61,248 nucleotides of DNA from an uncultured Gammaproteobacteria bacterium (GCA_964639595.1 CAZXEC010000002.1:13621-74868); one strand, 5' to 3'; shown: positions 8,951-57,366, numbered from the stretch's first letter. Notes: generated by a model not told the origin, from the letters alone. Numbers and translations: made by a program.

Positions 8951-9973
8951 ATGATCAATCTTAATTTTAATTTTGGCAAAAAAGTCGGTATTGATTTGGG
9001 AACTGCCAATTCCTTAGTTTATTTGGTGGGAGAGGGTATTGTTTTGAATGAACCAACGGTAGTGGCAGTGTCAAATGATGATAATCGAGTAGTGGCAGTA
9101 GGTTCAGAGGCCAGGGAAATGTTAGGCAGGACTCCCGGCAATATTATGGCCATGAGACCAATGCGGGATGGAGTAATTGCCGATTATGTTATAACCGAAG
9201 CTATGCTAAGTTATTTTATTGATAAGGTTTGCGGCAGGTCTAGGTTTTTTCGGCCGGAAGTGATGATTTGCGTGCCGGCAGGAGTCACATCAGTGGAAAG
9301 AAGGGCAGTGCTTGATGCCACCTTATCGGCCGGGGCCAAAACCGCATATTTGATCGACGAACCGCTGGCAGCGGCCATTGGCGCCAAGGTACCCATTGCC
9401 AACCCTTCGGGGAACATGATTGTTGATATTGGCGGCGGCTCAACCGAGGCGGCAGTAATTTCTTTAGGCGGAGTGGTGGTGCATAATTCAGTCAGAGTGG
9501 CTGGCAATAAAGTCGATGAAGCCATTGCCGCCTATGTCAAACGCAAACACAATTTGTTGATTGGTGATCGGATGGCCGAGGATATTAAAATTAAAATAGC
9601 ATCTGCTGTGCCGGTGGCGCAACAGAAGTCAATGGAAGTTCGCGGACGAGATAGCTTAACTAGCCTTCCCAAGACTGTGGAAATTTCTTCCAACGAAGTA
9701 ACCGAGGCCATACAAGCCCCCCTGCAGGCGATTATCGGTGCTGTTCGTGGAGTATTGGAGCAAACACCACCGGAGTTGGCGTCTGACATTATAGACAAGG
9801 GGATTGTGATGTCTGGAGGAACCTCTATGCTGTTAAACTTAGACAAATTGATGACCGAATCCACCGGTGTGCCTTGCCATGTCGCAGAAGACCCCTTGAT
9901 GTGCGTGGCTCTTGGCACTGGTATTGCCATGGAGAATATAGACTTGTATAAGCGTAGTCTTAGCAGGCGCTAA
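8951..9973 (+). CDS. mreB: Rod shape-determining protein MreB
   Basis: [35 protein letters not shown]. Confidence 0.97.
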
Positions 9974-10086
9974 AGTTAATTTCAAATGTCAAAGCTCAAA
10001 TATCAAATCAAATTCAAAGCACAAAACCTTAAAGAATTTTGTCATTTAATATTTATTTGGCATTTAGATTTTGGAATTTGAATTTT

Positions 10087-17977: not shown

Positions 17978-18012
17978 GAGGGGTTCAACCCCTATTAGGG
18001 GTTGAACCCCTA
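17978..18012. repeat. Doublet of the family B palindrome
   Basis: GAGGGGTTCAACCCCTA-T-TAGGGGTTGAACCCCTA. Confidence 0.85.
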
Positions 18013-18033: not shown

Positions 18034-18435
18034 TTATTTCAACTCAACTGTCGCTCCGGCGCCAGTCAGCTTGGTTTTGGCTTCTTCGGCAGTAGTTTTA
18101 TTAACTCCTGTCATTATTTCGCGGGGAGCGCCATCAACCAGGTCTTTGGCCTCTTTTAAGCCCAAGGTTGGGACCAGTTCCCGGATGGTTTTGATAACAC
18201 TAATTTTATTAGTACCGGCTTGAGATAGTATGACGTTGAAAGTAGTTTGCTCTTCTTTAGGCTCACCTTCGTCTGACGGGGCTGTACCGGCGCTGGCTTG
18301 AGCAGCAGCCATCACAGGAGCAGCAGTCACACCAAATTTTTCCTCCAGAGCTTTGACCAGATCAGCCAGATCAGAAACAGACATCTCTCCGATGGCTTCA
18401 ATTAAGTTTTCTTTGCTTAGTTTTTTGTCAATCAT
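18034..18435 (-). CDS. rplL: 50S ribosomal protein L7/L12
   Basis: [34 protein letters not shown]. Confidence 0.97.
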
Positions 18436-18511: not shown

Positions 18512-19045
18512 TCACGCTTTCCGCTTTGAGATTGCTTGTAAAGTTAATACTAATTGTCTTTGGTTCCATTGCAAGGCGGCAAGCAGTCTATATAGGGGAG
18601 CGGCCATAGTTTGGACAACTTGGGCTTGCAAAACTTCTCGGGAAGGCAGAAGAGCCAATTCTATAATTTTTTGAGCCCCGCGCAAGACTTGGTTGAAAAA
18701 TCCGCCTTTTATGATAGGAAGTCCGCTCACCTTGGCAAAATTAGCCAGCGCTTTCAAGGGAGTAATTTCATCTTGATAGGCCAAGAGAACAGCTGTTGGG
18801 CCTTCCAGGGAAAAAGGTAAATGTTCTTTACCCTTGACGCCCAACACCCTTGAAAGCGCTTTTTTCAGTAGAGTATTTTTGATAACGGTAAATTCGGCAT
18901 CCGTGTCTTTGAGCTTTTTTCTAAGCCCTGTTAACTGGACAGTATTTAAGCCTTTATAGTCGGCAAAAACTAAACTCTTGGCTCGGGAGAGTTTTGCTTC
19001 GATAGACTCTACTATCTGTTGTTTTTGAGCTTTAGTTCTTGGCAT
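18512..19045 (-). CDS. rplJ: 50S ribosomal protein L10
   Basis: DYKGL, VIKNTLLKKAL, LEGPTA; heptamer-derived insert RVLGVKGKE. Confidence 0.95.
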   Translation of the reverse strand: MPRTKAQKQQIVESIEAKLSRAKSLVFADYKGLNTVQLTGLRKKLKDTDAEFTVIKNTLLKKALSRVLGVKGKEHLPFSLEGPTAVLLAYQDEITPLKALANFAKVSGLPIIKGGFFNQVLRGAQKIIELALLPSREVLQAQVVQTMAAPLYRLLAALQWNQRQLVLTLQAISKRKA

Positions 19046-19252: not shown

Positions 19253-19474
19253 TCAAGGCGAAGACGTGGTTTTGCTAGCTTTCAAAAAAGCCGTTATTTG
19301 ATCTTTATGCTGCTCGATGGCTTGGATCAACCTGTCGACATCTTCTTCTCTAACGTAGAAATCATGAACACTGCTGATAGGATGGGCAAATGGGATATTG
19401 CCAAATATGGGCAGGACCTGCTCTTGCAAATATTTAGGCACATCCAGCCCTTGTTGCCTAAAACGAACACTCAC
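19253..19474 (-). CDS. Small hypothetical protein, possibly a frameshifted remnant
   Basis: 73-aa ORF with a GTG start. Confidence 0.35.
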   Translation of the reverse strand: MSVRFRQQGLDVPKYLQEQVLPIFGNIPFAHPISSVHDFYVREEDVDRLIQAIEQHKDQITAFLKASKTTSSP

Positions 19475-19839
19475 CAGGTGGAATCTTCTTTATATCTGGG
19501 AACAGGTAAATCGTGGTCATTCAGACGAAGTGTATTATATACTCATTTAACTCGATTTGGCAACAGTTGTCATGAAACGATTATGTAGCATAAAAACTTG
19601 AAAAGTTGTCAAGCGAGAGTGTTTTGGATATGGTCTATTTGGCCATTTGTAATTTGGCAGGTCAGAAGACTATACTTATCCCATAATTACCAACAGGAGG
19701 CTTTATTGAACGTCAACCAGTAGTTTCTCCAGAGAACAGGCATGCTCCAGGCTTTGATCCTACCCCCAGGCCGGCCTTAACAGCACCCGCTCAAGGCCAA
19801 ACTAGCTATGAAGGAGAAGGGATCAACACGCTATATGAG

Positions 19840-21018
19840 ATGATGCTTGCTAAAAGACATCCTTGGCCTGTCGAAGCATTTGGCCAAAATATCCATCGAT
19901 TGGTTGGTTTATACGAAGCTGGTCTGGCTCAATTTACCAGTGAGCCGGATATGGCAGCTTTAGGCGAATCTATTGCCCAAGGCAGGCTGGGATTAAGTTT
20001 GCTGGAGGAGGGCTACCGGCAAAACCTGGGTGAACTTGAACAACAAAAAAGACCGGTGGTGGAGGCTCTGCAACAACTGGAGCAAGAGGGGCATGATTGG
20101 CAAATCAGGATTGAGTCAATTGGCCGTAGCACTTCCATTAAAACAGGCGATGCGGGCTTGCTCCTTGACAGATTGCGAGTTGAACTTTATCGCTTAAAAC
20201 AAAAACAGCAGTTGTCTTGGTTGGGTCAGGTGCTGACTAGACTAATTGGAACCAAGCCGGTTCACCCCAAGCTGGCTGCCTTGAGCGCGATGCAGGCAGA
20301 TCAAGAACAACTCAAAACAGCTCTGGATGACAGGCAGAAACAGTTGGCAGATAAATTTGTGGTCGACAGGATAGAAAAAAGGCGATTTTTGGATCAAAGG
20401 GAAGGCAAATTTTGGCAGCAACTTCACCAGTGGAGCATACAGGATCCAGAACGGTTGGTGGTTCATTTGGCTTTCTACAGGCAACCTGCGATTGAGATTT
20501 TTTGGAGAGCCAATGCCGCAAATGCAGCTGCCAGAAGTCAATTTCTAGAGTTGGCCCTGTCCTGCAGAGTCATTTCTGCTGGCGAATACCAGAAATGGCT
20601 GCAATCTACAGAACATGTTCGAGAAAATACGGCAAAAGCCAGAGAAATGCTTGCCCAAGAAATTGCCAGGGTAGAGGGTGAGCTAGAATTGCCCATGCCG
20701 GTGATAGTTGGAGTTGATACAATGACCACCCGAGGTCAATTGACAGCTAGCATTAAACATCTCAAAAAAGATCTATCTGGGGAAAATGTCAAAAGATTAA
20801 CTGATAAGATATATCATGCTTTGTCTGCTCTGGCGCTTGATTTACCATATCGTGATTTAACTCGATTATTTGCCCAAGACATGATTGACAGATTGGGCGG
20901 GAATTACAGGTTAAGAGTCGGAACTTTGAGAGTAATATTAAACCGGGTTAGTTATGATGGTAAACAGGCAATTGAAATCATCAGTGTATTAAATAGGAAT
21001 AATCCCAACTATTATTAA
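19840..21018 (+). CDS. Coiled-coil protein with a C-terminal RelE/ParE-like domain
   Basis: Long Q/E/L-rich helices; C-terminal NYRLRVGTLRVIL...IEIISVLNR; start uncertain. Confidence 0.65.
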   Translation: MMLAKRHPWPVEAFGQNIHRLVGLYEAGLAQFTSEPDMAALGESIAQGRLGLSLLEEGYRQNLGELEQQKRPVVEALQQLEQEGHDWQIRIESIGRSTSIKTGDAGLLLDRLRVELYRLKQKQQLSWLGQVLTRLIGTKPVHPKLAALSAMQADQEQLKTALDDRQKQLADKFVVDRIEKRRFLDQREGKFWQQLHQWSIQDPERLVVHLAFYRQPAIEIFWRANAANAAARSQFLELALSCRVISAGEYQKWLQSTEHVRENTAKAREMLAQEIARVEGELELPMPVIVGVDTMTTRGQLTASIKHLKKDLSGENVKRLTDKIYHALSALALDLPYRDLTRLFAQDMIDRLGGNYRLRVGTLRVILNRVSYDGKQAIEIISVLNRNNPNYY

Positions 21019-21082
21019 CAAAGCGAGGCTTTTCTTGGTTTTTACTGGAACGCATCAATAATAACTGCAGTTCCCCCATTGG

Positions 21083-21894: not shown

Positions 21895-22827
21895 TTAGGC
21901 TCGAATATCAACTTTAATGCCTGGCCCCATGGTGCAGTTGACAACTAGTTTCCTGATCGAGCTGGGACCTAAGGCCCTGATCAAAGCTTTCAGATTGTCT
22001 GATAAATTAGCTTCAGGTGAAGATACCCGGCCAATAATGGTATGGACCAGCGGGGCTTTTTCTTCTGTTTTGATCTCCATTTGACCGGCAGCAAAATCAG
22101 CCAGGGTTTTATCTAGGTTGGTGGTGACTGTGCCAGATTTAGGGTTGGGCATCAATCCTTTTGGTCCCAGGATTTTGGCAACTTTAGCCAGTTTTGGCAT
22201 CCATTCTGGAGTGGCAATAACTACCTGGAAGTCTTTTTGCGGTTGCAGTTGGCCACTGATGATGTTTTCAAGAGTTTGATCAGTACCGACGATCAATTGC
22301 TGACCGTTAGCTTGTGGCTGCCCTTTGATGTGAGAGCTCAAGGTGGCAGACTGACTGTCAGGGAAGATCAGTATTTTTCTTACCTTTCCGGTGGGGTGGG
22401 GGAGAACGAGAGTTGCCCTAAAACCAGAGTTAGCGACAACCGCGTGTACTTCAATAGTCCCGTCAAATTTAACAAAAGCAGTCTCGCAAGCCAGCGTAAT
22501 TGCTTCATCTATAGGATATAATTTCTCTCGATCTACTTTAGATATCGAGTTTTGGTAATTTTTGCCACGGACGTGCTCTTTTTGAAACTTTTTTTTACTC
22601 TTCTTTTCTTTTTTATGGCTTTCTTGAGCAGTTTTTTGCTCACCAGTTTTTTCTAGTTTTTTTGGTTTTTTACTAATTTTTTGATCTTTTGCCGATTCAA
22701 CAGGCGTAGTTTCCTGTTTTACTACAGGTTTCTCCTTACTGTCTATTCTGGTTCTTTTCTTGGAGACTTTTTTGACAGTAGATGCTACCGTTGAGTCGTC
22801 AATTATTTTAACTCGTGGTCTTCCCAT
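21895..22827 (-). CDS. rplA: 50S ribosomal protein L1 with a Lys-rich N-terminal extension
   Basis: LGPKGLMPNPKSGTVT, HTIIGRVS, CTMGPGIKVD. Confidence 0.96.
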   Translation of the reverse strand: MGRPRVKIIDDSTVASTVKKVSKKRTRIDSKEKPVVKQETTPVESAKDQKISKKPKKLEKTGEQKTAQESHKKEKKSKKKFQKEHVRGKNYQNSISKVDREKLYPIDEAITLACETAFVKFDGTIEVHAVVANSGFRATLVLPHPTGKVRKILIFPDSQSATLSSHIKGQPQANGQQLIVGTDQTLENIISGQLQPQKDFQVVIATPEWMPKLAKVAKILGPKGLMPNPKSGTVTTNLDKTLADFAAGQMEIKTEEKAPLVHTIIGRVSSPEANLSDNLKALIRALGPSSIRKLVVNCTMGPGIKVDIRA

Positions 22828-23025: not shown

Positions 23026-23175
23026 ACATCTTTAAACATCTTGGACGGACTAAGATTAAAAACACCTGACAATTTTTAGAAGAACTGTTGGATTTTTAAG
23101 GAAGTATACCAGGAAGTATACCGTGATGGGAAAATAAAAAAAGTTGACCCTTTAACCTATAGTGGGTATAATGAT

Positions 23176-24471
23176 TTGGTTATGACAGAAAAAGAAGACC
23201 GATATCAACGGAAAAACTGGACAGAAGTAAAGGTTGATAATTTGGGCTCAAGATTTGTCAGGATGGGGGGTTTAGAAAAAGACAGATTTGAACTTTCCAC
23301 TCCTGTTACTAGATTTTTAACCAAAGCTTTGGAGCTTGGAGTGCATCTTAAGACTCCCCAGGTAAAGCAATTAACTCCATCGGTTTGGGAAAGGATGGTG
23401 GATATGGTGGTTTTATACGCTTTTGGAAAAAATGATCGACAAAATGAGCCCTTGGAAAGAAAGTTCAGTATGGCAGAGATAGGGAAAATTCTGCCCGCTA
23501 GAGAAGGTTACTTAACCCGTGAACGCGTTAACCAGTTGATCAAAAAGGGGCTGATTTATTTATACCAAAATTCTCCAGATGACCTAAAGCAACAATACCC
23601 GGATTTATTAGATCAAGTGGAGAGAGAACATGATTTTATGGTAAGGCCAAGAGGGGCAACCAGGGCTGTTGCAGGAGTAGTTTTGACAGGAACAACCCAT
23701 CAGAATCTTATCAGTCGGGGGTTTTCTGGACAATATCTGGAAATTGCTCGCAAAATCCTGGCGGAGTATGATTTATCTGTGCCGTACAAGGAAGGAACGA
23801 ACAAATATAAAAAGCTGGTTGAAGACCTTAAAGCTTTGACGGGTCAGGAAGAAAAAGAGCAGATTAAGCAAATTTTGGACAGCATAAATCGTTACTTTTA
23901 TCAAAGGTATAGAGAGGAATTTGAAACCTATTGTCTAACTATTGCAGATCTTTGCCAAAAAGCAGGATTACATCGTAGTTTGAAAAAAGGCCACCATGGT
24001 CTGGTACTGGCGGTTTTAGATGATTTAGGTATTGCTTACGGTGAGATAGCGATTAGAATGAAATCACGTAAACAAAAAGGATCAGGTCGTATCAACTTTA
24101 TACTGGCTGTTTGTGAGCAACAGGCCATAGCCCGATTAACAGAGGATGAAAGATTGAAACCTTTGATGGAAAGCCCAATCAGCCAAATTAGCGGTCAAAA
24201 GCGAGACCAGCTTCCCACTACCGAGCAATTAGAAGGTAAAAAAGGATATGAGAGTGTGGGAGTATTCTTAAAAGAGTTGGGTCTGCCGGCAATTGGAGGA
24301 AGAAACAGAATAACAGCTCAACAGTGGTTGGATGGTTGTCCTGTAGCTGTTTTTATTAGAAGAAGTGGTAGGAATAGGAACCACTATTATCCTACAGATC
24401 AAAAGGGGCAGCTTGAATCTTTTTTCAAGAGCAGATATCAACAATTAAGAGGTGACCTTAACCCCCATTGA
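23176..24471 (+). CDS. Hypothetical protein with a sigma70-r4-like HTH
   Basis: [10 protein letters not shown]...[13 protein letters not shown]; converges on and overlaps the rplK 3' end. Confidence 0.65.
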
Positions 24472-24873
24472 TCTGGCTGTACCTTCCACAATCTTCATGG
24501 CAGCTTCAACATTTTGGGTATTGAAATCCGGCAGTTTGCGCTCGGCAATTTGACGAACCTGATTTTGAGTGAGCGTTCCGACACTTTCCCGGCCAGCCTT
24601 GCCAGATCCTTTGTCGATGCCTAGAGTTTTTTTAATTAGCTCTGCCACCGGCGGCTGTTTAACAATAAAAGAAAAAGTCCGATCTTCATAAGCCGTGATC
24701 ACCACCGGCAGAATAATGCCTTTTTGGTCAGTGGTTTTATCGTTGAAAGCCCGCACAAAATCCATAATGGGCAAGCCGTGCTGTCCCAGGGCCGGGCCAA
24801 CCGGCGGAGCTGGAGTAGCCTCGCCTGCCGGCACATTCAGTTTTATTATTGTTTTTACCTTCTTAATTGCCAT
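24445..24873 (-). CDS. rplK: 50S ribosomal protein L11
   Basis: [25 protein letters not shown]; start reassigned to MAIKK. Confidence 0.97.
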
Positions 24874-24955
24874 AAAATAAATAGAAAACAATCCATATCA
24901 TCAACCTACCTTAAATTTTTAAATTTAATTATAATAGATATGGTTTTCTTAAAAA

Positions 24956-55638: not shown

Positions 55639-55911
55639 ATGCAAAAGTGTGACAGATGCGGCAAGGGTGTGACTATTGGCAAATCCGGTGCTCACCGTTA
55701 TGGTGGAGGCTGGGCTATGCGCGCCCCCAAAAAAAGCCGGATCTGGAAACCCAACTTACATAATTTTAGAGTGGGGGATAGCGGCAGGTCTAAAGTAATG
55801 AAGTTCTGCACCAAGTGCTTGCGGAAAGTGAAAGAAGAAACCAAAAAGCTGCTAGCTAAGAAAACTGCCAGACCATCTGGTGGTGTGACAGTTGGTATTT
55901 CTGCCCAGTAG
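55639..55911 (+). CDS. rpmB: 50S ribosomal protein L28
   Basis: CDRCGK...KSRIWKPNL...CTKCLR. Confidence 0.92.
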   Translation: MQKCDRCGKGVTIGKSGAHRYGGGWAMRAPKKSRIWKPNLHNFRVGDSGRSKVMKFCTKCLRKVKEETKKLLAKKTARPSGGVTVGISAQ

Positions 55912-55923
55912 GGTTCCAGTGAT

Positions 55924-57366
55924 ATGCCCACCAAAGAAGGGCTCTTTTCCGAACATTTGCCACAGAGTTTTATAGAAAGGCTCTTTTCGAGACGGTTTGA
56001 TACTGTTTTAATCTCTGAATATCTGTCTATTCCCCAAGTGGTGGCTGGTTTTATTTACCAAAAGGTGGGGATCTTAACCAAAGACTGTTATTTAGTGCCT
56101 CGTCAAGATCGGCAAGCTTCTTTAGACTTAAAACAAAGAAGTTTGCCTCTTATTCACCCTGATTATTTAAACCCACGACTCTTGGAGCAAGTCATAGACC
56201 ACAGCCGGTTAAATGTTCACCAAAAAGGCAATTTGCGCCGGTTGGCCCTGTTTATCGAAGCATATCGGCCTTTTCCCGCCAAAGAATGGTGGAAAGCAGG
56301 AGAAATCCAACAAGACACCAAAAAAATTGCCCGAAAATCGCTGCATCAGTATTTGGCTACTATACTTTTGGCGGGGATAGGTGACCCTTTTTACGCTTAT
56401 AAAACTTGTTTAAAGGCTCTGGACAGGTTAGTAGCCCAAAAAGGAAGTCGCTTTTCTCCTTTGGCTTTGGCCAAATCGTATAGATTAAGCCAGCAGGCGA
56501 TCCGGTTGGCTCGGGAGAACTTGAGGCAAAAACCTCCATTGGCCACAGGCGAGGCGGATATTTGTCCTATAACCTTGACAGTGCCTTTTTTGAAAAGCGC
56601 TTATTACGAGCCAGATCGCATCGAATACGGCCAGGTGCAATTTGACTATGGCCGTCTCCGTTTATTAAAAGATCAGCATTGGGCTATTGCCGTGGGTGGG
56701 TCACCCCAAAGTGGTAAAAGCACCCTGTCTGTATCTTTGTGTCAAGCCATGGAGCACTTAGTTGGCGACTGTGTAGAGAGAGGGATTATTGACAAGGGGC
56801 AGGTGAGAATTGGTTTATGTGATTTGGACGTGTGGGCGCCGACTGCTTCCTATTTGGCCTCTGGCCAAGAGGTGCAAAGAGCAGACAGGGCCGAACGCCA
56901 AGCTCACGCCCTTTCCTTAATGGTTGGCTCAAACAAAGATTTTAGAGCCAGGAAAAAGCATGATAATGTGATTGTTGCTGATTTACCAGGAGGTAAACCC
57001 GATATATGGACGCAGTTTTTGGCTAATCCTTGCGATTTTTCCGTGATAGTGGACAAGGATTGGCAGCAGTCGGCCAAGGGGTGGCAAGATTTCTTATTAG
57101 GGTTTTATTTACCTCGACCAGTAGTGGGAATTCATACCAGATTCGGTGAAGAAGGTCGACAGAGCGGCATCCGTTTTTACCAGCACAGATCTCACAGTGG
57201 TAATTTTGTCCAAGGCCGGGTGGTCAATTTGGCAAGACAACCGGTGCCGGATGATCCGGTAGTTAATTTTGTGGCCCATGTTTTATTATTTGATTATCTG
57301 CCCCAAATGGTGACTGGCAAAGAGGTTTATCGTTATCAACTGGCCCAATCATTGGGATTGATCTAA
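55924..57366 (+). CDS. Hypothetical P-loop NTPase
   Basis: AVGGSPQSGKST (Walker A); GLCDLD and IVADLPG. Confidence 0.7.
   Translation: MPTKEGLFSEHLPQSFIERLFSRRFDTVLISEYLSIPQVVAGFIYQKVGILTKDCYLVPRQDRQASLDLKQRSLPLIHPDYLNPRLLEQVIDHSRLNVHQKGNLRRLALFIEAYRPFPAKEWWKAGEIQQDTKKIARKSLHQYLATILLAGIGDPFYAYKTCLKALDRLVAQKGSRFSPLALAKSYRLSQQAIRLARENLRQKPPLATGEADICPITLTVPFLKSAYYEPDRIEYGQVQFDYGRLRLLKDQHWAIAVGGSPQSGKSTLSVSLCQAMEHLVGDCVERGIIDKGQVRIGLCDLDVWAPTASYLASGQEVQRADRAERQAHALSLMVGSNKDFRARKKHDNVIVADLPGGKPDIWTQFLANPCDFSVIVDKDWQQSAKGWQDFLLGFYLPRPVVGIHTRFGEEGRQSGIRFYQHRSHSGNFVQGRVVNLARQPVPDDPVVNFVAHVLLFDYLPQMVTGKEVYRYQLAQSLGLI

Follow-up and report, generated by a model that had tools for sequence, protein, structure and literature searches.

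A RelE-fold domain tethered to a long helical hairpin and paired with a convergent gene among the ribosomal protein genes of an ultra-small bacterium

RelE-fold nucleases are textbook components of two-gene toxin-antitoxin (TA) modules, and RelE itself is the ribosome-dependent mRNA endonuclease of the type II relBE modules. Here we describe gene X, which encodes a predicted RelE-type domain at the end of a long helical chain, in a 61,248-nt stretch of DNA (GCA_964639595.1, CAZXEC010000002.1:13621-74868; hereafter the window, with all positions counted from its first letter) deposited as from an uncultured Gammaproteobacteria bacterium. The source genome (G000; 848 kb, 10 contigs, 99.6% complete) is that of an ultra-small groundwater member of the candidate phyla radiation (CPR, or Patescibacteria) of the Microgenomatia type, in the same class as a 'Candidatus Daviesbacteria' metagenome-assembled genome. 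Counted from its first canonical start, the open reading frame (ORF) of X encodes 392 aa (P0001). The reading that we favour, and consider somewhat probable, is that X acts on ribosomes as an RNase effector of the RelE type, under the control of its helical domain and/or of the product of a convergent partner gene, Y, the two genes forming an accessory module.

Beyond the canonical modules, two kinds of described system come close. Cami1 (PDB 8phb; Mogila et al. 2023, as cited in PMC11229360 and PMC12179292), a CARF-RelE protein that serves type III CRISPR systems as an effector, combines an N-terminal regulatory domain with a C-terminal RelE domain that can act in the ribosomal A site (PMC11229360), and it is reportedly captured by the L12 ribosomal stalk (PMC11229360, PMC12179292). 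Gerdes (2025; PMC11980606) catalogued multidomain and fused BECR toxins, namely fused TA genes (195 of them), PtuZ and the membrane ToxM/ToxR, and set aside multidomain BECR proteins that had no identifiable antitoxin or few members. A simpler comparison is offered by the stand-alone RelE/ParE toxins (PF05016-type) of sister CPR genomes (L008-L015), which the X family profile picks out at E ~1e-4 per genome. These share the pattern YR.RVG.YRII...HRKD.Y and, unlike X, are monodomain proteins of 83-95 aa.

The C-terminal domain of X has the same predicted fold as the E. coli, archaeal and Thermus RelE proteins (PDB 2khe, 1wmi, 3bpq, 2kc8; Z 6.4-8.3), and shares with them the motif pattern YRxRVG..R(I/V)I ... 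R...Y, the equivalents of R61, R81 and Y87, and a basic charge. It differs from them in standing at the end of a ~280-residue helical extension, in having an extra beta-hairpin at the start of the domain and a longer insert between alpha2 and beta2, in the absence of a RelB-like antitoxin, a bicistronic operon and the C-terminal alpha3, and in falling under the Pfam thresholds. X is not a canonical type II TA module, because its toxin domain is part of a longer chain and no small antitoxin gene is co-transcribed with it. Like Cami1, X joins an N-terminal domain and a C-terminal RelE domain in one chain with no protein antitoxin, and the two RelE domains match structurally (Z 5.6). Unlike that of Cami1, the N-terminal domain of X is a predicted helical hairpin rather than CARF and gives no sign of cyclic-nucleotide control; its model is all-helical without a Rossmann-like core, and no CARF family in Pfam matched it. 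X is therefore not Cami1. No cas genes were seen beside X in any locus examined, although no dedicated search for them was made. X adjoins the stalk genes rplJ-rplL, which recalls the capture of Cami1 by L12, a connection to the stalk that for X consists of gene adjacency only. As in the systems of Gerdes, a RelE/ParE-superfamily domain lies within a larger protein and the system may be membrane-associated; X differs from those architectures in its coiled-coil N-terminal domain, 'coiled' being a word that the Gerdes paper nowhere uses, in having no recognised fused antitoxin domain, and in a partner that is convergent rather than co-transcribed.

By its modelled fold and by profile comparison, X is a member of the RelE/ParE superfamily (BECR fold). 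Its last 112 residues, modelled alone, reached a predicted local distance difference test score (pLDDT) of 94.3 and a predicted template modelling score (pTM) of 0.85, and AlphaFold2 (AF2) predicts for residues 283-385 a beta-hairpin, two helices, a short strand with a helix, and a three-stranded sheet. When this domain was compared with the PDB by Foldseek, nearly all matches were to RelE, YoeB, HigB, ParE, YafQ or PrpT (probability up to 1.00); the template modelling (TM) scores peaked at 0.71 with the T. thermophilus RelE and M. tuberculosis RelBE2 structures. VIA-align, run over 48,161 chains, filled all of its top 23 ranks with the RelE/ParE superfamily (RelE, YoeB, HigB, ParE, YafQ, Cami1), including T. 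thermophilus RelE at Z 8.3 (root-mean-square deviation 3.1, 88 residues), M. tuberculosis RelE1 at Z 7.9 and Cami1 at Z 5.6; below rank 23, Z falls to 4.9 and unrelated folds are mixed with distant RNases. The nearest clusters in the ESM Atlas are PF05016 families (TM 0.79). The sequence-only reading had staked its case on this domain adopting a RelE fold, and that is the fold returned by the domain model, Foldseek, VIA-align and the ESM Atlas alike. The RelE-type motif that it had picked out is real and far above chance: the C-terminal family alignment matched that of E. coli RelE with seven stand-alone CPR toxins in hhalign with a probability of 97.7% (E 1.3e-12).

Other sequence searches returned little. 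PF05016 is touched by 4 of the 14 family members (best E 9e-4), and PHROGs gave one weak RelE-like match (E 0.016). Neither P0001, nor its C-terminal part, nor Y had any match in Pfam, NCBIfam or PADLOC. Searches of the PDB sequences with phmmer and with the family profile gave nothing significant (RelE 2khe at E 0.78, the others designed helical repeats). A word-index search found no match for the isolated C-terminal domain, one homologue for the whole of X, and only Y itself when Y was the query, while an ESM Atlas feature search gave no usable match for X or Y.

In RelE, cleavage is lowered by each of the substitutions R61A, R81A and Y87A and is almost lost in the R81A/Y87F double mutant, while K52A and K54A change it little (Neubauer et al. 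2009, PMC2807027). We mapped these residues onto X from the profile alignment, not from superposed coordinates, and scored conservation over the 14 members. The three positions that matter for cleavage by RelE are well kept: R61 corresponds to R364 of X (14/14), R81 to R386 (11 R, 3 H) and Y87 to Y391 (13/14). The equivalent of K54 is R357 (12 R, 2 H) and that of R56 is R359 (10 R, 1 K), and K52 corresponds to N355, which is not conserved. The C-terminal domains are also basic across the family (pI 8.2-10.2), as in stand-alone RelEs. With the catalytic residues of RelE kept and the domain basic, the tip of X is probably an active RelE-type RNase, and its activity would be expected to depend on the ribosome. 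The proposal that the tip is a translation toxin domain is thus backed by the predicted fold and by the conserved Arg/Arg/Tyr set. Its substrate could be mRNA or rRNA, since some RelE homologues cut rRNA instead of mRNA, according to a passage in PMC12620021.

Ahead of this domain, a full-length AF2 model built from the 14-sequence family alignment (mean pLDDT 85.5, pTM 0.53) is helical over residues 18-276, in line with the ~300 aa of helix or coiled coil foreseen in the sequence-only reading. A pair of helices of 58 residues each (36-93 and 143-200) makes up a long antiparallel hairpin; at its tip (94-142) are the motifs of the N-terminal domain with the strongest conservation, GIGR (G95) and VHP (H142 invariant, P143 in 13/14). 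Residues 259-280 have pLDDT <50, which suggests a flexible tether between the two domains. No domain, and no known sensor or antitoxin family, was found in residues 1-280 in Pfam or NCBIfam. Against known folds, the N-terminal domain matched generic long hairpins only (ESCRT-III, PspA/Vipp1, prefoldin, SMC, colicin Ia, designed bundles; Z 9-11). As these values are noise level for helical proteins, we do not claim a relationship to ESCRT-III/PspA. A homologue of the helical domain that has no RelE domain (276 aa; HMMER E 2.3e-8, hhalign 87.6%) occurs in genome G406 (L027 1300-2955), beside secE and a nusG-like gene. It has a convergent 277-aa neighbour with a hydrophobic, transmembrane-like segment, and the two genes overlap by 9 nt. 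This neighbour has no detectable homology to Y (hhalign probability 1.3%), so that the resemblance is architectural only. The existence of the RelE-less homologue shows that the helical domain is functional in its own right, and the RelE domain may be an add-on.

The sequence-only reading had placed the ORF antisense between rplA and rplJ, with no obvious antitoxin. The ORF, its strand and its flanking genes were confirmed (Pfam), and there is indeed no conserved small antitoxin-like ORF upstream of X when the rplJ-X gap is compared with that of the relative L001; in other members rpmB lies upstream. What had been overlooked is gene Y, between X and rplA: X is not alone. A convergent gene of 250-293 aa lies beside X on every checked contig that extends past the 3' end of X, that is, on 10/10 distinct informative contigs or genomes and in two genomic contexts (G000, L001, L002-L004, G385/L016, L019, L021, L022, L023, and the contigs of P0005 and P0016). 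Eight of these proteins are alignable, with 7 invariant residues, and share an N-terminal helix motif (FLE..AV..LL.LE..LE.KP), one hydrophobic segment and a domain of ~190 residues. The hydrophobic segment (49-67 in P0002, the Y protein of this genome) reaches Kyte-Doolittle (KD) values of 1.2-2.2 in the family and 1.37 here; it is likely, but not certain, to be a transmembrane helix. No antitoxin family matched Y in Pfam, NCBIfam or PADLOC. An obligate membrane-protein neighbour, Cam3, is described for some of the Cami1 genes and recalls Y.

The arrangement of the two genes is close. In 8/10 loci the distance between the two stop codons ranges from a 10-nt gap to a 19-nt overlap; the gap is 76 nt in L001 and 64 nt here, where the spacer has no terminator-like fold (z -0.37). 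With the stops so close or overlapping and no terminator in the 64-nt spacer, the X and Y transcripts must run into each other. Y begins 35 nt beyond rplA, its ATG preceded at 3 nt by AGGAGG, and the two genes are probably co-transcribed. The X-Y pair is found in two unrelated neighbourhoods and so moves and persists as a unit. A prediction of the X-Y complex (score 0.27; mark 0.32) gave no verdict and is not used as evidence either way. Always present beside X, Y is a more obvious candidate regulator than the self-inhibition or sensor fusion that was first suggested.

The first of the two contexts has the order rplL-rplJ, X, Y and rplA-rplK, with X and Y converging; it is seen in G000, in L001 (at 40% identity) and on the P0016 contig (at ~27%, the most divergent member). 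In E. coli, one operon (rplKA) gives way to another (rplJL) at the rplA-rplJ junction. The idea that X had been inserted into a ribosomal protein operon must therefore be qualified; as the placement recurs in homologues at 40% and ~27% identity, it is of long standing and does not represent a recent insertion. A search for mobile-element boundaries around X gave no meaningful direct or inverted repeats on its flanks and no GC anomaly. In the second context (G385/L016, L019, L023 and the P0005 contig), an M50 peptidase gene and a small gene precede X, and Y converges on it from the side of fmt and def, overlapping fmt by 11 nt in L023. The small gene is rpmB (bL28), which ends 3-22 nt upstream of X or overlaps it. 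The rpmB gene of G000 itself, at 55645-55833 (+), scores 40.7 bits against PF00830 (cut-off 27) and is 55-68% identical to the small genes of the second context. Its product has a C-terminal CxxC zinc-ribbon tail, and the slot after it in G000 holds a different, 480-aa ORF (55924-57366), not X. This recurrence of X-type genes inside translation-gene clusters may reflect function, for example co-expression with ribosomes, or may come from CPR ribosomal-operon junctions gathering inserts. Two further observations were made on the contigs of relatives. In L001, an extra 291-aa ORF of no known family (9169-10044, -) lies between Y and rplA and is absent from G000, so this gap keeps gaining or losing genes. 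In L019, a classical RHH-PIN (VapBC-type) pair at 482-1100 lies ~1.5 kb from the X homologue; ordinary TA modules thus coexist near the X locus in relatives.

The X family is rare and patchy within the Microgenomatia. An exhaustive phmmer scan over 1.84 billion representatives yielded 14 clusters, one of them a 66-aa fragment of X itself and the other 13 full-length proteins of 407-462 aa, all sharing this two-domain layout. P0001 is most closely related to P0003, with 65% identity in the C-terminal domain and 25% in the N-terminal domain. Full-length matches to X were present in 2/401 genomes sampled from the class, G000 included, and in 0/40 further relatives, while 96 genomes of the family of G385 held one full-length and one partial match. 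G000 has no PF05016 match anywhere in its genome. Because the distribution is patchy, an accessory stress, defence or conflict module would be the likeliest role for the pair; PADLOC found no defence system among the proteins of the X locus.

The start of X may lie upstream of the ATG at 19840. The frame is open for 51 codons upstream of that position and contains no ATG, GTG or TTG; the ATG has no well-spaced Shine-Dalgarno sequence and cuts in half the family motif YL...L..KR...P. The upstream in-frame peptide (…IERQPVVSPE…INTLYE-MMLAKRHPWP) aligns with the N-termini of family members, for example MVTEQ..SP. At the start of this open stretch, a perfect AGGAGG (19695-19700) is followed, after a 4-nt spacer, by an in-frame ATT at 19705, and promoter-like sites at 19606-19676 lie just upstream. 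Elsewhere in the window, AGGAGG is found 6 nt before the rplL start and 3 nt before the Y start. Two observations speak against the ATT: an ATC at 19822 is likewise preceded by AAGGAG, and one member of the family, P0007, is hardly longer than X counted from its ATG. On balance we lean slightly towards a start at a non-canonical upstream codon, with ATT 19705 as the candidate, which would give a protein of 437 aa. A familiar case of a non-canonical AUU start is infC, whose expression is sensitive to initiation factor 3 (IF3). If X does start at ATT, its expression would be low, and, more speculatively, might by analogy with infC be sensitive to IF3.

Table 1. Gene X, its predicted parts and its neighbours in the window
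Feature	Position (nt)	Strand	Basis and remarks
rplL	18034-18435	-	Pfam; flanks X, same side as rplJ
rplJ (uL10)	18512-19045	-	Pfam; divergent from X
Candidate start of X (AGGAGG-cttt-ATT)	19695..19707	+	Shine-Dalgarno plus in-frame ATT 19705; would give 437 aa
Gene X, coiled-coil N-terminal domain and RelE-fold C-terminal domain (predicted)	19840..21018	+	ORF, family alignment, AF2 model
Predicted N-terminal helical domain of X, residues 1-280	19840..20679	+	AF2 model, conservation
Predicted RelE/ParE (BECR) fold domain of X, residues 281-392	20680..21015	+	Model, structural matches, profile alignment
X-Y spacer, 64 nt between convergent stops	21019..21082	none	Sequence
Gene Y (P0002), 258 aa	21083-21859	-	ORF, family alignment; convergent with X
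rplA (uL1)	21895-22827	-	Pfam; directly upstream of Y, co-directional
rplK	24445-24891	-	Farther on, with nusG; parted from rplA by a plus-strand ORFan

Several features of the neighbourhood can be recorded in their own right. In the rplJ-X intergenic region, there is a 73-aa ORF, possibly a gene, at 19253-19474 (-), and promoter-like sites close to consensus (TTGCCA-18-TATAAT) lie at 19563-19534. L001 lacks a counterpart of this ORF and has two unrelated small ORFs in the same place. Just downstream of rplL, at 17979-18011, there is a palindrome with a perfect 15-bp stem (AGGGGTTCAACCCCT-AAT-AGGGGTTGAACCCCT), which may be a terminator or a hairpin like the repetitive extragenic palindromic (REP) elements. 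No L10 leader and no other RNA family was found near the X locus in Rfam. On the other side, a 431-aa ORFan at 23176-24471 (+), with no Pfam family and weak HTH/Cox-like and AbiTi-like hints only (E ~0.01-0.04), splits rplK from rplA and converges with rplK, the 3' ends overlapping by 27 nt; a strong promoter-like site (TTGACC-17-TATAAT) precedes it at 23144-23172. The rplA product, uL1, is 310 aa long and has a Lys-rich N-terminal extension of ~115 residues ahead of the Pfam L1 domain (120-302), an extension also kept in the relative L001 (298 aa).

Other explanations of X differ in which of its parts they put to work. X could be a fused TA gene inhibited in cis, in which the N-terminal domain masks the RelE site until, on a trigger, this domain is displaced or degraded, and in which Y is a bystander or a secondary factor. 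No separate upstream antitoxin is conserved, 195 fused BECR toxin-antitoxin genes are known (PMC11980606), and the N-terminal domain is acidic to neutral in 9/14 members next to a basic C-terminal domain, as in antitoxin-toxin pairs; in P0001, however, it is basic (pI 8.6). Nor does the N-terminal domain match any antitoxin family, although it may be an antitoxin domain of a novel kind, and the low-confidence linker and the pTM of 0.53 mean that no docked state is predicted, so that cis-inhibition lacks structural support. The strict conservation of Y argues that Y matters, and a homologue of the N-terminal domain exists with no toxin to inhibit. We regard this explanation as unlikely. Another idea is that of an exported, colicin-like or polymorphic toxin, in which the hairpin would serve delivery or receptor binding, the RelE tip would kill a neighbouring cell, be it a host or a competitor of the episymbiont, and Y would be a convergently encoded immunity or release factor as in the loci of pore-forming colicins. 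A long antiparallel hairpin with a C-terminal BECR nuclease does recall the nuclease colicins, colicin Ia and CdiA-CT toxins are among the weak structural matches, and CPR bacteria live attached to other cells. But X has no signal peptide and no hydrophobic segment (maximum KD 0.84), no secretion-system genes lie beside it in any locus, all of the helical matches are at noise level, and the toxin tip is not polymorphic, as all full-length members carry the same domain. An exported toxin therefore seems to us quite improbable. The tip could also be a ParE-like poison of DNA gyrase fused to a coiled coil, since the fold is shared, ParDE1 and ParE2 are among the structural matches (Z 6-7.3), and the only Pfam family touched is named ParE_toxin. 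That family, PF05016, mixes ParE and RelE kinds and includes E. coli RelE (PMC11980606). The best matches of X are RelEs, and it keeps the equivalents of R61, R81 and Y87, whereas the catalytic residues of the RNases are said to be missing from ParE gyrase poisons (PMC11980606); a ParE-type function is thus argued against, and we give it very little credence, the least among these alternatives.

A different kind of explanation takes X out of the toxins altogether. The fold might be used without catalysis, X and Y forming a structural or regulatory complex of coiled coil and membrane protein that is tied to translation and, for example, tethers or samples ribosomes at the membrane, with the RelE fold binding ribosome or RNA only. 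This would suit the position of X and Y in translation operons in two contexts (X after rpmB with Y overlapping fmt; Y 35 nt after rplA), and also the RelE-less homologue with its convergent membrane protein beside secE-nusG. However, members only 18-30% identical retain the Arg/Arg/Tyr set, a conservation not easily accounted for unless the domain is catalytic, and the family is sporadic even among close kin, unlike housekeeping translation factors, so that we find the explanation rather improbable. A similarly doubtful proposal, to which we give marginally less weight, sees in the X-Y pair no selfish toxin but a device for the control of translation that is specific to some lineages of the Microgenomatia. 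A RelE-type nuclease on a coiled-coil arm would be transcribed together with ribosomal genes (following rpmB, or divergently from rplJ-rplL), made from an IF3-sensitive AUU start, recruited to ribosomes perhaps via the adjacent L10/L12 stalk as Cami1 is, and coupled through membrane protein Y to the state of the envelope or of host contact. If that were true, the episymbiont would reduce its translation on losing its host or coming under attack. Certain findings also weigh against the RNase effector that we favour. P0001 itself falls under every Pfam, NCBIfam and PADLOC threshold, the equivalent of RelE K52 is not kept in the family, and the full-length model has no confident interdomain contact (pTM 0.53, linker pLDDT <50). 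The hydrophobic segment of Y is marginal in this genome, a RelE-less homologue of the N-terminal domain exists in G406 with a similar convergent neighbour, and the embedding of X and Y among translation genes might indicate housekeeping and not conflict.

For an RNase effector under the control of its helical domain and/or Y, the following mode of action can be envisaged. X would consist of a RelE-type BECR domain flexibly tethered to the ~280-residue helical hairpin, and would partner with the convergent, probably membrane-anchored Y. The basic C-terminal domain would enter the ribosomal A site and cut ribosome-bound RNA (mRNA, possibly rRNA) by means of R364, R386 and Y391, as RelE does by means of R61, R81 and Y87. 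Until a trigger arrives, X would be held inactive or off ribosomes by its N-terminal domain, by Y or by both, in place of a RelB-like antitoxin. Further brakes on the expression of X might be the non-canonical AUU start and antisense transcription reading through from Y.

By sequence and predicted structure, the X family is a new architecture within the known RelE toxin family: a helical hairpin, a flexible tether and a catalytically equipped RelE domain, unseen by Pfam, NCBIfam and PADLOC. Single-chain versions of RelE with regulatory domains, such as Cami1 and the fused TA genes, have only recently been recognised in a role as immune effectors, and in the X family a convergent, often overlapping partner gene stands in place of an antitoxin. 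The RelE-less relative suggests that a RelE module can be joined to a pre-existing pair of coiled-coil protein and partner. The CPR genomes that host these genes are of ~0.85 Mb and have little non-essential DNA. The repeated placement of the pair at rplJ/rplA and at rpmB/def-fmt, and of the RelE-less relative at secE-nusG, leads to the testable idea that these ultra-small symbionts may use such genes to throttle translation or to defend themselves.

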